A DNA stretch of 64,000 bases from a virus (lineage: Duplodnaviria > Caudoviricetes). Below, piece after piece: positions 32,252 through 53,220 of this stretch (positions are counted from its first letter, which is position 1; each line of letters starts with the position of its first letter). The translations under genes and the position numbers were made by a program. A model generated the notes under the pieces. It was not told the DNA's origin. It was given only the letters and a program-made list of their open reading frames with translations, and did no database searches. The stretch spans positions 1 to 64,000 of IMG/VR virus record IMGVR_UViG_3300033066_002300, one strand, 5' to 3'.

Positions 32252-32290
32252 AATTTAATAATTATGTTTTTATTTTTAATTTGGCTACTG

Positions 32291-32368
32291 GTACTAACAC
32301 AACCCTTGCTCAATTTGCGAATTACATAACTGCTAAACAAACTAAGCAAGGCTCGATAACGTTAGCAG
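32291..32368 (+). repeat. attC-like recombination site 1
   Basis: gtacTAAC...ccttgct...agcaagg...GTTagcag imperfect palindrome. Confidence 0.65.
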
Positions 32369-32373
32369 TAATA

Positions 32374-33144
32374 CTACATTTGTTCTCCGAATAAACTATT
32401 TTGTTCATAACCTTTTTCTTTTCTTTTTTCCTCCCCTTTTTCAGAAACAAATCTATCAGTAGCAATTTGATAATAATTTTCATCTATTTCAAAACCTACA
32501 AATTTTCTATTTGATTTTAAACAAGCAACGCCAGTACTTCCACTTCCCATAAATGGGTCTAAAACAACATCATTTTCTTTGCTTGAATTTTCAATAAGTA
32601 TTTTCATCAATTCGATAGGTTTTTCGCTTGGATGTTGTTTGTTTTTTACATTTGGTATATTTAAAACGCTGCGAGTTCCACAATTATTTATCTTATTAGC
32701 TTTCCCTTTATAAGCAAATATTATATATTCGTGACTATCCATGTAATACATATTTGTTATGCAATTATCTTTTGCCCAAATAAGAGTTTTAAATACATTA
32801 AACTTCGCTTTTTCTAATTCGTTTAACATTTCCTTTAAGCACTTATTATTAGTCATAACGTAAAAATGACCACCATCTTTTAAAACATTATAACATAAAG
32901 GTAGCCATTCTGAAAATTTAATATCATTAAACTCAAAGCCTCCGTTACCATTTATAAATTTATCTTCTTTTAACATTCCGCCAGTCCCTCCGCTATTACC
33001 TCTTTTAGTTGTTTTATATGGTGGGTCGGTAACTATTAAATCAATACTGTCGCTTTCTACTCCTTTAAGTAATTCAACACTGTTCCCTTGTTTTGTATTT
33101 ATCATATTTTTAATTTTTTCAAAATTATTTTTGCCATCGCTCAT
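32374..33144 (-). CDS. site-specific DNA methyltransferase (N6-A/N4-C, beta class)
   Basis: VTDPPY, HPSEKP, VLDPFMGSGSTG, GFEID. Confidence 0.93.
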   Translation of the reverse strand: MSDGKNNFEKIKNMINTKQGNSVELLKGVESDSIDLIVTDPPYKTTKRGNSGGTGGMLKEDKFINGNGGFEFNDIKFSEWLPLCYNVLKDGGHFYVMTNNKCLKEMLNELEKAKFNVFKTLIWAKDNCITNMYYMDSHEYIIFAYKGKANKINNCGTRSVLNIPNVKNKQHPSEKPIELMKILIENSSKENDVVLDPFMGSGSTGVACLKSNRKFVGFEIDENYYQIATDRFVSEKGEEKRKEKGYEQNSLFGEQM

Positions 33145-33200
33145 TTTTAAATTCTTTTTAGTTTGTACTTCTAATTAAGTTTTGTGGTATAAATCCCTAC

Positions 33201-33258
33201 TACCTGTAACAGCACCTATGCGGCATTAAAACGACCGCCAATCTGCAAAACGTTATAC
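33201..33258 (+). repeat. attC-like recombination site 2
   Basis: ctgTAAC-agcaccta-tgcgg...ccgc...tgc-aaaac-GTTatac; shares arms with site 3. Confidence 0.7.
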
Positions 33259-33265
33259 GCAAGCA

Positions 33266-34000
33266 CTACATTTCGTTTCCAAAGAGAGTTTGCGGTTCAA
33301 AATTTTTATTAAAATCTGCCCTCCTTTTCATTTTTTCAAAATGATTTGGGTCTTTCTCAATCGCTATAAATTGTCGGTTGTTCTTTAAGCAACTTTCAAT
33401 TATAGTTCCGCTTCCACCAAAGGGGTCAATACAAATATCATTTATATTACTGCTGTTTAAAATTAAGTGGTCATATAGTTCAACAGGTTTTTCTGACGGA
33501 TGTATTTTATTACCCCTTATTCCTTTTATACTTATCAATGCTGTGCTTCCCATATTGTTTATTTTTCTCGCTCCGCCTTTTCTGAATAAAACAATAAACT
33601 CAACATTCTGCATATAATATCCAAGCGGTGTGTGCATACCCTTATCCCAAACCAAAATATTTAGAACTTTAAACCCCACCTTTTCTCCATCTGATATTAT
33701 TTGTGATAAATTTTTCTGATTACTCATACAATAAAAGTGGGTACTGTTTTTCATAACTCTAAATAATTCATCCATCCATCTGTAAAAGGGTGGTATTTCA
33801 AACATAATGCCGCTTTCTTTTTCTTCTCTTGTAATGGTGTTCATTTCTAATTTCTTTTTTAAAGTATCAATTTGCAATTGAGCATGTTCAATTAAAAAAG
33901 CATTACGCTCCATATTAATTCTCATTTCAAGCTCTGCTTGATAGTTGAGTTTAAGTTCTTCCCAAATTTTTAATTCTTTTAAATCATCGTATCTACACAT
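33266..34000 (-). CDS. chimeric or truncated beta-class DNA methyltransferase lacking DPPY
   Basis: HPSEKP, IDPFGGSGT and AIEKD present; N-terminal ~60 aa is an unrelated coiled coil. Confidence 0.75.
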   Translation of the reverse strand: MCRYDDLKELKIWEELKLNYQAELEMRINMERNAFLIEHAQLQIDTLKKKLEMNTITREEKESGIMFEIPPFYRWMDELFRVMKNSTHFYCMSNQKNLSQIISDGEKVGFKVLNILVWDKGMHTPLGYYMQNVEFIVLFRKGGARKINNMGSTALISIKGIRGNKIHPSEKPVELYDHLILNSSNINDICIDPFGGSGTIIESCLKNNRQFIAIEKDPNHFEKMKRRADFNKNFEPQTLFGNEM

Positions 34001-50434: not shown

Positions 50435-50671
50435 TTAATTATAAATTTTAAAATCAAACGTAACACCTAAGAGCATTCGCTCTCCAACTTTTTTATTTAT
50501 TCTTTTTTTAAGCCACCAACCTAAAGTCTTATGATACCATACTGGTACTTTTACATTAAAAGAAAAACCTCCAGCATGAACTTCTGAAATATAGACATGC
50601 TCTATGAAGACAGATAAATTCTCCACAAATTCTATAATTTTTTTTGCTGTATCTAATTTATTATCTGGCAT
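50435..50671 (-). CDS. hypothetical protein
   Basis: ORF in operon. Confidence 0.55.
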   Translation of the reverse strand: MPDNKLDTAKKIIEFVENLSVFIEHVYISEVHAGGFSFNVKVPVWYHKTLGWWLKKRINKKVGERMLLGVTFDFKIYN

Positions 50672-51221
50672 TATTTTTTTCTTTTAATGCTTCAACATAA
50701 TCTTTTGACTCCTTTAAACCCATTCCTGTTGCATCTTTATACGTTTTTACAGCCATTAACAAATGCCCTTCATTGATATGTTTCATCAACTCTTTATCAA
50801 GTTCTTTATTACTTTTAAAAGCTCCCTTAGAAGTCTCAGCAATAGAAAGAGGATTTTTTGCTGCTAATCCATCTACATAGTCTTTGGATTCTTTTAAACT
50901 AAGTCCAGTTTCATCTTTATAAAACTTAACAGCTTGTAACAATTGTTTATCAGCAACTAACTCTAATATTCTTTTATCAATTTCTTTAGAGTTCTTAGTT
51001 TTATTCTTCGAATTTGTAGTTATTTGAGTAGCACTAACATTAATCTTTATCTTAGAAAACTCTTTTTCAAATAAGATAGTTTTTTCTTTGTTTAATATAT
51101 GATTGGTTTTAGTTTTTTTCCATTGTGGATTAGAACCACCAAGTCTATAATAACTAATTCCTCTTACATTAACAGTTACTTTATTTCTGTTATTTACAGC
51201 TTCATTTTTTAATACTATCAT
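50661..51221 (-). CDS. protein with two ribosomal L7/L12 C-terminal-like repeats
   Basis: AVK.YKD.TG[LM][SG]LKESKDYV[DE] twice. Confidence 0.75.
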   Translation of the reverse strand: MIVLKNEAVNNRNKVTVNVRGISYYRLGGSNPQWKKTKTNHILNKEKTILFEKEFSKIKINVSATQITTNSKNKTKNSKEIDKRILELVADKQLLQAVKFYKDETGLSLKESKDYVDGLAAKNPLSIAETSKGAFKSNKELDKELMKHINEGHLLMAVKTYKDATGMGLKESKDYVEALKEKNNAR

Positions 51222-51552
51222 ACTCTTTTAATTTATTTTCAATTATTTCAAAAACTTCTTTTGGTTCCAACTTGCTGCCAAATTCTCTTGAAGACCCTCC
51301 GATAATATCGGAACCACCCCAGCCATTTTGCATAGTTAATCCTTCTTTAGAATTCAAAGATACAAAAAAATCTTTAATTGGGAAAGGAATATATCTACTT
51401 TTTTTTCCGAGTGAATAAACATAATTCCCATCAGGTCTCTTAGCAACAACAGATAAGAAAGCATCCATTGTGCCTGTTGAAAATAAAGCATATCTTGCAG
51501 AACTTCCTCCAATTTCATTTACAACTTTAAAGGTTGGCATTAATTCTGATGT
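51202..51552 (-). pseudogene. C-terminal part of the DHH-like phosphoesterase split by the cassette
   Basis: TSELMPTFK...GWGGSDIIGGS continues in frame from RHEILF once 51553-51963 is removed. Confidence 0.75.
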
Positions 51553-51963
51553 TAGCAGCAAGTTTTTAAACTTTTTCTACCACCGCACAATTTTCAATAA
51601 TAACATCCCTTAAATGCTTTGCCCCTTCAATTCTATTTTTATGAGATTGAATTTCTTTATCAAAAAACATATTGTCAATATCTTCATTGTTTGGCATTTG
51701 TGATTTTAAATATTCATCCATCGCTTCAAAAACATTTTTGCGATATTTTCCAATTACATAATAAAAATCACCTAATTTATCTTCTAATATTTTTTCTTTT
51801 AAAGTCATATTAGGTTGTTTATTACTCTCTGTAATCATTGTTCTTGTTATTTCCATTTTTTATATTTTTAGTTATTAATTCCTACGCTCAAAAAGTTTAA
51901 AAACCAGACTGCTAACAGCACCTAAATCGCAACTCCGCTACGCAGCGTTTAGTTGCAAACCGT
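51551..51963. mobile_element. 411-bp integron-like gene cassette inserted at a GT dinucleotide
   Basis: left end GTTAGCAG; right end CTGCTAAC-hairpin-cGT; circularisation rebuilds an attC-like palindrome. Confidence 0.8.
51566..51856 (-). CDS. cassette-borne hypothetical protein
   Basis: 96 aa; AMDEY and GAKHLRD phage-type motifs. Confidence 0.65.
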   Translation of the reverse strand: MEITRTMITESNKQPNMTLKEKILEDKLGDFYYVIGKYRKNVFEAMDEYLKSQMPNNEDIDNMFFDKEIQSHKNRIEGAKHLRDVIIENCAVVEKV

Positions 51964-52578
51964 AAAAAGAATTTCATGTCTTGTATCTAAAGCTATTTCA
52001 CCTCCCAATCCCATTATGTATTGATTTATTCTAGCACATACACTTTCAATGCAAGCTAACATAGCTTGAGCATCTGCATTTGATAACACACCAGTTTTTC
52101 TCATATTTGTATACGGTTCAAATATCCAATTATGCTGCGCTAATAATTTTTCGTCAAGGCTCATGGGAAATGCTCCACCTGTAATATCTAATCTTGAATC
52201 AAGTGCTAATAGCCTGTTAAATGAAGGATTACTATTAACTCCTTCAAACATATGATAATTATCTAAAATAAAAACCGCAAGACAAGTGTCTTGGTCACAA
52301 TCATTTATATATACATTTGCAAAAGGTTTATCATCTTTTCTAAATGATTTATATAACCCTCCTTTAATTGCCATATATACTTGGTCTGCTGTAGACATTG
52401 TGGCCTCACGCACAACCTCATGATGATGGTCGAAATTTATGTGTTTAGTAGCTTCAGAAAAATTGGGAGCTCCTACTACATAACCGTCTAAGGCGATTGA
52501 AAGTTCTGGACTATTTTCCAAAAATTCTTGCCAAGAAAGACTTTTTCTGGGTTCTGCTATTAAGTTTATTGTTTTCAT
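51949..52578 (-). pseudogene. N-terminal part of DHH-like phosphoesterase (interrupted)
   Basis: IALDG, NFDHH, NDCDQD; last residues VCN* come from the cassette. Confidence 0.7.
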
Positions 52579-52912
52579 CTTCTAGTTTTTCTAAATCATT
52601 CAACATAATTTGTCTGTTTTCTTCCACTTCTTTTTTCAACAATCTTAAATAATCAGCATATTGTTTTTCGCTAACAACAACTCCATTCATACCATATCTG
52701 TTTTTAAGTAATTTTGTAGAACCATCTTTATCTATAAAAATTACAAAAGGAGACTCAGCAATAGGCTTCATAGATGTTGTTAATGATGTAATATCAATAT
52801 CTTTAAATTCCTTTTTGTACTGAGACCTCGGCACCTCATTTCTATGAATTACTAAACAAGATTGAATATTTCTCTCGTATTTTTTTTTAATTTCAGCTTC
52901 GAATTGATTCAT
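52511..52912 (-). CDS. hypothetical protein
   Basis: LLKNRYG; KKSFLARIFGK tail. Confidence 0.55.
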   Translation of the reverse strand: MNQFEAEIKKKYERNIQSCLVIHRNEVPRSQYKKEFKDIDITSLTTSMKPIAESPFVIFIDKDGSTKLLKNRYGMNGVVVSEKQYADYLRLLKKEVEENRQIMLNDLEKLEDENNKLNSRTQKKSFLARIFGK

Positions 52913-53220
52913 TTTTTACTTTTTAAAACTTTAATTTCTATTTTATCAAAATCTATTTTGCTATTTCTAATTTTTACAATCCACTTTTGTAAATCTAAAT
53001 TATTAATTTTAATTGTTGTTTTATGCTTTTTGTTAAATAAATGACAGATAGTATGAAAATCTTCTGCCATTTTTTTCTTATTAAAATCAGCATCATCTAA
53101 TTGAGAAGGAGCTTGATTTAGTGAAAGAAGAAAATAAAAAAAACACACAGGCTCCCCAGTATCTTTCGACAATGAAAGACTTTCATAAATATTAAGCACA
53201 TCTTCAAGACAAATATACAT
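52909..53220 (-). CDS. hypothetical protein
   Basis: ORF in operon. Confidence 0.5.
   Translation of the reverse strand: MYICLEDVLNIYESLSLSKDTGEPVCFFYFLLSLNQAPSQLDDADFNKKKMAEDFHTICHLFNKKHKTTIKINNLDLQKWIVKIRNSKIDFDKIEIKVLKSKK

Follow-up and report, generated by a model that had tools for sequence, protein, structure and literature searches.

We analysed a 64,000-nucleotide (nt) stretch of a Caudoviricetes phage genome (positions 1 to 64,000 of the IMG/VR record IMGVR_UViG_3300033066_002300; called the window here, and the reference for all coordinates unless a contig is named), in which a gene for a DHH/DHHA1-like protein is split by a 411-nt segment. We consider it very likely that this segment, at 51551..51961, is a mobile cassette of an integron-like system of Bacteroidota and phages, which a recombinase inserted at an attG-type site within the phage gene. 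The local genes all lie on the minus strand, as do the parts of the gene and of the cassette described below.

An earlier note on this DNA had described three open reading frames (ORFs) at the locus, at 51949-52578, 51566-51856 and 51202-51561, and all three were found as described. The first encodes 209 amino acids (aa), with the C-terminus ...RHEILFTVCN*, and the last begins with TTG or, to give a 112-aa product, with ATG at 51540. The 209-aa ORF extends past the gene junction to a stop at 51949 inside the cassette, and the TTG at 51561 likewise falls inside the end of the cassette; it is the 112-aa product that a gene caller predicted for the 3' part on an independent contig (L006). The 5' part of the interrupted gene itself occupies 51962..52578 (codons 1-205 and two bases) and is predicted to encode the DHH-like domain, a linker and the first strand of a second domain. 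The 3' part occupies 51202..51550 (codons 206-321) and would encode the DHHA1-like domain without that first strand. Removal of 51551-51961 (411 = 3 x 137 nt) gave a single ORF of 321 codons with no internal stops, which reads ...RHEILFTSELMPTFK... and restores the frame as the note had proposed.

Alignment of the DNA with two related contigs (L002 and L003) showed a clean 411-nt gap precisely at the window junction, with no target duplication, and the empty site that had been anticipated in related genomes is therefore present in two of them. The closest intact homologues at the protein level, P0001 (321 aa, 89% identity) and P0002 (314 aa, 90%), are encoded on contigs that are syntenic with the window and carry genes for HD/kinase, MazG-like, PTH2, the interrupted-gene homologue, L12-like and GluRS proteins. 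In a distant phage (LR745208.1) both halves lie within one 306-aa ORF. The 5' half had 244 homologues in a database search; those listed are each encoded as one protein (about 250-335 aa) by phages, candidate phyla radiation (CPR) bacteria and DPANN archaea, so that homologues run uninterrupted across the junction. A close relative of the 5' half was not found in IMG/VR, and no other record of the exact 209-aa product was found. An exact search of IMG/VR and the JGI metagenomes for the left junction gave no match. Only 2 nt, 'AC', are common to TTTTTAC in the target and GCTAAC at the end of the cassette; on the plus strand these correspond to the GT...GT bounds noticed earlier, and they leave the boundaries ambiguous between 51551-51961, 51552-51962 and 51553-51963. 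A single cassette standing outside an array, without duplication and with the site empty in relatives, corresponds to insertion at a secondary (attG-type) site.

Since the segment is a multiple of three in length and its precise removal restores the frame, it might instead be spliced out of the RNA as an intron, or out of the protein in the manner of an intein, so that the gene would in effect be unbroken. We give this explanation almost no weight. An in-frame stop lies four codons into the segment, the segment has an ORF of its own, and the same unit stands between genes in arrays (see below). A scan of 50500-53000 against Rfam at an E-value of 10 gave only chance-level matches and no intron family. 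Group I introns are marked by an exon-terminal U and an intron-terminal G, and group II introns by a 5' GUGYG consensus; the boundaries of the segment are unlike either.

The junctions could also have been produced by an assembly that joined two populations. L006 is an independent contig of this phage (18 kb, SRR32380195), and its first bases fall within the hairpin loop of the cassette site (L006:1-90), so assemblers do break there. However, L006 comes from another sample and contains the same right junction and 3' half of the gene, both junctions lie exactly where the cassette family predicts, and a chimera would not yield a 411-nt unit with matched end boxes. An artefact of this kind is therefore exceedingly improbable. 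The break in L006 may reflect heterogeneity of the population or a drop in coverage at the hairpin, and is at most a hint of the former.

In the direction of the gene, the cassette consists of a folded attC-like site, a leader, an ORF of 96 codons and a terminal 8-nt box. The site (51909..51961) scored 57.5 bits with a covariance model, R1, whose training set includes the site itself. It comprises a spacer, left and right inner arms with a GC-rich loop stem between them, and an outer box, GTTAGCAG (51909-51916), the outer partner of which sits at the opposite end of the cassette. Except for a few substitutions and a short indel in the loop, this site is the same as those of three phage loci (L234, L189 and L201). 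A second copy of the exact hairpin was absent from the window and from the 95.9-kb contig of the phage in direct-repeat and short-pattern searches. The right end of the cassette (51551..51576) contains the right arm of an inverted repeat (51562-51576), which overlaps the stop of the 96-aa ORF, and the terminal box CTGCTAAC (51551-51558), which finishes in the conserved AAC at the crossover. The boxes GTTAGCAG and CTGCTAAC are complementary over 8 of 8 nt, as expected from the perfect 8-bp outer repeat described earlier, and the complementarity between the cassette ends is longer than had been noted, covering 27 nt with one loop-out of 3/4 nt (51551-51576 against 51890-51916). This imperfect inverted repeat far exceeds the 8 nt needed for an outer stem, and it is kept in the copies of the cassette on two other contigs (L004 and L005).

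The leader, 52 nt between the site and the ORF (51857..51908), begins with the left arm of the extended inverted repeat (51890-51904) and is common to unrelated cassettes. The same leader stands before an unrelated 162-aa ORF in L101 (L101:75-140), and related leaders were found in many phage cassettes. A pattern of TTTTGAGCG-W-AGGAATTA, followed by an A/T-rich stretch ahead of the ATG, was observed in cassettes that are otherwise unrelated. The shared leader could be a promoter or translation leader that goes with the site, as part of its module, and not with the gene.

The ORF of the cassette (51566..51856, 96 aa) matched no Pfam family, no PHROG family and nothing in the GenBank phage collection. 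Its sole homologue among 5.8 billion proteins was P0122 (86% identity), which is encoded on the two short contigs L004 and L005 with the same site upstream in both and with different sites and genes downstream. The paired boxes have changed jointly, from GTTAGCAG/CTGCTAAC in the window to GTTAGTAG/CTACTAAC in L004. Site, leader, ORF and end box were thus seen together in three contexts (the window, L004 and L005); the unit is a mobile cassette, cut at the base that follows AAC.

The left box of the L004 site was used as a 17-mer to search for further members of the family, and matched more than 120 loci in species genomes, mostly of Bacteroidota, and more than 120 IMG/VR contigs. About 70 chance matches of a 17-mer are expected in the genome collection, and we therefore discarded matches outside the Bacteroidota that had no right-hand box. 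Of 246 loci that were fetched, 168 had the conserved right box 30-200 nt downstream of the left box. Members of the family lie at gene boundaries in the window, in more than 100 phage contigs and in bacterial arrays, as the note had suggested they should, and the crossover lies at ...AAC in the window and in the arrays alike. A consensus structure was computed with RNAalifold from 23 short sites, the window site included, and consisted of a 5-bp outer stem (TAACG with TGTTA), a one-sided bulge of 4 nt and an inner stem with a conserved mismatch. The variable stem covaries, with AU10/UA8/CG4/GC1 at one position, for example. The sites thus share with attC an imperfect hairpin, paired outer (R) and inner (L) boxes and an AAC/GTT triplet at the crossover.

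The window contains two further sites, both on the minus strand. A scan of the phage with R1 detected a second member of the family at 33199..33260 (36.5 bits, E 6.6e-7, the match covering 33202-33260), which is independent of the training set. A third site, at 32290..32368, was found by an architecture scan as a match over 32295-32363 and belongs to a variant subfamily with the spacer GTTAT, which also follows the homologue of the 96-aa ORF in L005. The architecture scan gave two sites in the genome against 0-1 in 20 shuffled sequences; together with the E-value of the second site, this places the site family of the window far beyond chance. The second site separates two DNA methyltransferase genes that match PF01555, and the third follows the methyltransferase ORF 32374-33144, with the box CTGCTAAC preceding the site. 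In the region 32290-34000, the two PF01555 methyltransferase genes follow one another as cassettes, in a small array without an integrase in the same phage.

Wider surveys of bacterial genomes were less telling. R1 was built from short, phage-type sites and missed the known sites of a Flavobacterium chromosome (G001), which makes a scan of 151 Bacteroidota genomes with this model uninformative. A one-mismatch pattern survey of 400 Bacteroidota genomes gave counts modestly above those of a reversed-pattern control, with clear multi-match arrays in a few genomes. A variant of the left box ending in ...GCTAC, not ...GCTAA, was seen in about 20 sampled Bacteroidota genomes, with four copies within 3.5 kb in one of them (G297); it probably marks a further subfamily of the same sites.

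If cassettes exist as circles cut at AAC, pairing is predicted between consecutive sites of an array, and such pairing was seen. We compared the 5 nt that follow the outer box of site j with the 5 nt that precede the AAC box of site j+1. Mean complementarity was 3.59/5 in bacterial arrays, where it was perfect in 13 of 27 pairs, and 2.94/5 in phage arrays (perfect in 12 of 48), against 1.7/5 in same-site controls.

In the window, as in L004 and L005, the site stands before the ORF, rather than after it as in classical cassettes. The note had remarked on this orientation, and it is the rule for phage-borne cassettes: the ORFs flanking phage sites run with the AAC-spacer-site strand (77:8 and 87:3), and those flanking bacterial sites run opposite to it, in the classical orientation (65:6 and 50:13). 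Sites also differ in length, with medians of 91 nt in phages and 126 nt in bacteria. Among the phage loci (L127-L246), it was the sense strand of the site that folded more stably than its complement, at 104 sites against 14 (p 6e-18) and by about 5.5 kcal/mol, and no such strand bias was present among the bacterial loci (L007-L126; 42:36). This preference for the sense strand suggests that the hairpins may have an added role at the RNA level in phages.

It may then be asked whether the sites are mainly transcription or RNA hairpins, serving as terminator and leader much as in T4-type phages, with the segment having entered the gene by homologous or illegitimate recombination. The folding bias of the phage sites, the leader common to unrelated cassettes and the lack of a recombinase in most site-bearing phages are all consistent with such a role. 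However, the target and the cassette ends share only 2 nt, and homologous recombination therefore cannot explain the event. The crossover also lies at the same conserved AAC as in the arrays, and the complementarity of boxes between consecutive sites extends to phage arrays. We thus consider it improbable that RNA hairpins with incidental recombination account for the insertion, although an RNA role could coexist with site-specific recombination.

A candidate enzyme for the insertion of cassettes was found next to the arrays. On the complete Flavobacterium chromosome G001, a gene for a 350-aa tyrosine recombinase at 2399.1-2399.9 kb stands immediately before an array of 36 sites, each 129-133 nt long, which all lie on one strand and together span 38 kb; the array in G002 has the same layout. 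A tblastn search of the fetched loci placed homologues of the recombinase no more than a few kb from sites in 13 of them, on a constant side with respect to the polarity of the sites. A phage record of 170 kb (G031) contains six sites over 20 kb, followed by a recombinase gene (93.4-116.5 kb), and a complete phage of 310 kb (G032) has a site and a recombinase gene 2 kb apart (185.9-188.2 kb). In both phages the recombinase gene is downstream of the sites and co-oriented with them, and these loci are phage-borne platforms. Phage and bacterial recombinases are 42% identical. The G001 protein passes the XerA/'integron integrase' model NF040815 (228.7 bits against a cut-off of 220) and fails the IntI model TIGR02249 (214 against 265), and in an alignment with VchIntIA (2a3v), which extends to either side of the IntI-specific domain around patch III, it has 17 residues in place of the 59-residue IntI-specific region. 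This protein, integron-like in the layout of its locus, is therefore not a canonical integron integrase. The integron-like system proposed in the note therefore holds as regards layout, boxes and a linked IntI/XerA-like recombinase; with the IntI-specific domain missing, it is not a canonical integron.

The linked recombinase also bears on whether the segment is a hairpin-ended transposon of the IS200/IS605 type, similar to a PATE, inserted without duplication 3' of TTAC or TAAC by an HUH Y1 transposase. The insertion does lie exactly 3' of TTAC, the element ends in TAAC, a hairpin is found near one end, and there is no target duplication. Nevertheless, a search for Y1_Tnp (PF01797) gave no match in the 36-site Flavobacterium chromosome G001, in three site-bearing phage records (G014, G031 and G032) or in the fragment of the window phage, with the control search positive in 6 of 14 known genomes. 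The arrays adjoin a tyrosine recombinase instead, each unit has one hairpin and not one near both ends, and the pairing of boxes between consecutive sites fits circular cassettes. Insertion by a Y1 transposase is, we believe, very improbable.

The history that we propose for the window is insertion of a cassette by site-specific recombination. The cassette would have been excised from an array as a circle, and in that circle its terminal box would pair with the outer box belonging to its own site. A Xer/IntI-like site-specific tyrosine recombinase, of the kind that adjoins the arrays, would then have inserted it, the enzyme being supplied either by the host or by the two thirds of the window phage that are unsequenced. 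The crossover would have joined the conserved AAC of the site, presumably folded as a single strand, to TAC in codon 205 of the DHH/DHHA1-like gene, with no duplication. Such an event would be of the same kind as the entry of an integron cassette into a secondary (attG-type) site. Integron cassette insertion at secondary or attG sites is also said to have been the subject of a 2024 report by Loot et al. in Nat Microbiol 9:228.

Several observations weigh against this history. The target carries TAC and not AAC. Exact searches of IMG/VR and the JGI metagenomes found no circle junction, no array copy of the exact site and no empty allele from the same strain. The 96-aa ORF is joined to one site subfamily in the window (51909-51961) and to another in L004 and L005 (L004:15-105), which implies either an exchange of sites, for which we offer no explanation, or an independent origin of the cassettes. 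The earlier note had seen no integrase in the window, and no tyrosine recombinase is encoded anywhere in the 95.9-kb contig of the phage (CheckV completeness of the record, about 31%); 26 of 30 site-bearing phage records likewise have none. These absences make it likely that the recombinase acts in trans on phage sites. Finally, the enzyme and the mechanism proposed rest on analogy with integrons, and the candidate recombinase has no IntI-specific domain.

Excision of the cassette had been put forward as a reversible switch for the gene, and we found no support for this idea. After insertion one complete site is left, the right junction being the AAC box alone, and neither an empty allele of this strain nor a circle junction was found in the searches above.

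The interrupted gene had been identified as that of a DHH-like phosphoesterase. It matched no Pfam family, DHH included, no PHROG family and no sequence in the PDB, and its matches in a protein atlas were to hypothetical clusters only, with DUF6687 at 0.93. A homologue was not found in the large site-bearing phages G006, G018, G031, G032 and G033. A structure model of the intact protein P0001 had a predicted local distance difference test (pLDDT) score of 93, with a first domain reaching to about residue 188 and a strand at residues 202-206. Among the matches listed by Foldseek for this model, nearly all of the top 40 or so belonged to the DHH/DHHA1 superfamily, including NrnA, TM1595, RecJ, Cdc45, family II pyrophosphatase and the C-Ala domain of AlaRS; the matches were weak (E 1.5e-3, TM about 0.3), as expected for a protein with two mobile domains. 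Residues D50-H51-H52 and D93/D95/D97 are invariant. The model thus supports a DHH/DHHA1-like protein at the level of the fold only, and the earlier identification stands to that extent.

On the same model, the junction, after residue 205, falls in the first strand of the second domain (202-206), just past the linker between the domains. Both halves of the split gene are 88-90% identical in amino acid sequence to their relatives, with ratios of nonsynonymous to synonymous substitution (dN/dS) of 0.04-0.08, the same as between the relatives themselves, and no sequence decay of either half was apparent in this comparison. The lack of decay may indicate that either the insertion is recent, or a two-piece protein is still functional. 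Both the cassette ORF and the 3' fragment point in the direction of the operon and are probably transcribed with it. Read from the TTG at 51561, the end box would contribute M-L-L-T ahead of SELM, similar to the severed I-L-F-T strand; this may be chance.

A broader proposal can be made with more doubt than confidence. Bacteroidota phages may run an integron-like branch of their own, with a short Xer-like recombinase that has no IntI domain, cassettes that place the site first, on the sense strand, where the site perhaps also serves as an RNA hairpin, and entry at a minimal 'AC', conserved genes included; the enzyme interrupted here, cut at a domain boundary, may survive as two polypeptides.

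Integrons are regarded as bacterial devices for the capture of genes, defined by IntI, and surveys find almost none in Bacteroidota; those made with IntegronFinder reported, for Bacteroidetes, one complete integron and otherwise In0 elements only (PMC9024848). In phages, canonical attC models revealed 17 clusters of attC sites lacking an integrase (CALINs) in 10,705 genomes (Qi et al., 2023; PMC9892861), and the carriers, both virulent and temperate, include Polaribacter phage P12002L with methyltransferase genes (PMC9892861). Secondary-site (attG) insertion is known for classical integrons (Loot et al., 2024, as cited in PMC12901181 and PMC12614218). No account of a Xer-like cassette system from phages of Bacteroidota turned up in literature searches, and the box motifs of the sites were not found in this context in the papers searched.

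Before and after can be compared at this locus, where the site is filled in the window and empty in two relatives, and the cassette is also found in other arrays. The comparison indicates that a related system of hairpin cassettes very probably operates in Bacteroidota phages, where cassettes can enter ordinary phage genes at minimal sites. A domain regarded as indispensable for the recombination of folded sites is missing from the linked recombinase, and this bears on the origin of integrons. A large, unannotated pool of phage accessory genes, including methyltransferases and many small ORFs, may be moving as cassettes. The junction also provides a defined substrate for assays, with one site, one target and several candidate enzymes.

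Small phage genes that lie between conserved stem-loops and leader-like sequences, in plastic regions of the genome, are also a feature of the PeSL (mobile promoter/stem-loop) cassettes of T4-type phages, whose shuffling is ascribed to recombination between repeats. Unlike PeSL cassettes, the present ones always cross over at the same base and have no homology with the target. The likeness to integrons, above all to sedentary chromosomal integrons with uniform attC sites and to the inverted-integrase type, lies in arrays of small genes, imperfect hairpin sites and an AAC/GTT crossover (PMC12614218, PMC8618304, PMC9024848), as well as in a cassette end box complementary to the cassette's own site and a tyrosine recombinase gene that flanks the array on one side. 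The Flavobacterium cassettes also have the classical order, with the site after the ORF. The differences are that the recombinase is matched best by the XerA model NF040815 and falls below the IntI cut-off, with 17 residues against 59; that the sites have a one-sided 4-nt bulge and a conserved mismatch, where attC has a symmetric unpaired spacer and extrahelical bases; and that phage ORFs are reversed relative to the site.

Insertion into an attG site is resembled in that a single cassette lies off an array, at a site of minimal similarity, without duplication and with the crossover at G|T of the cassette core. Here, however, the target is a phage gene, the system is the Xer-like one of Bacteroidota and phages, and the event is seen in natural data and not in an assay. 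Phage CALINs are similar in having attC-like sites without an integrase and methyltransferases as cargo (32.3-34.0 kb of the window), but the CALIN study (PMC9892861) reports no Bacteroidota-wide family, no linkage to a Xer-like recombinase and no interrupted gene. The feature particular to the window is the insertion of a cassette in the middle of a gene, at a domain boundary.

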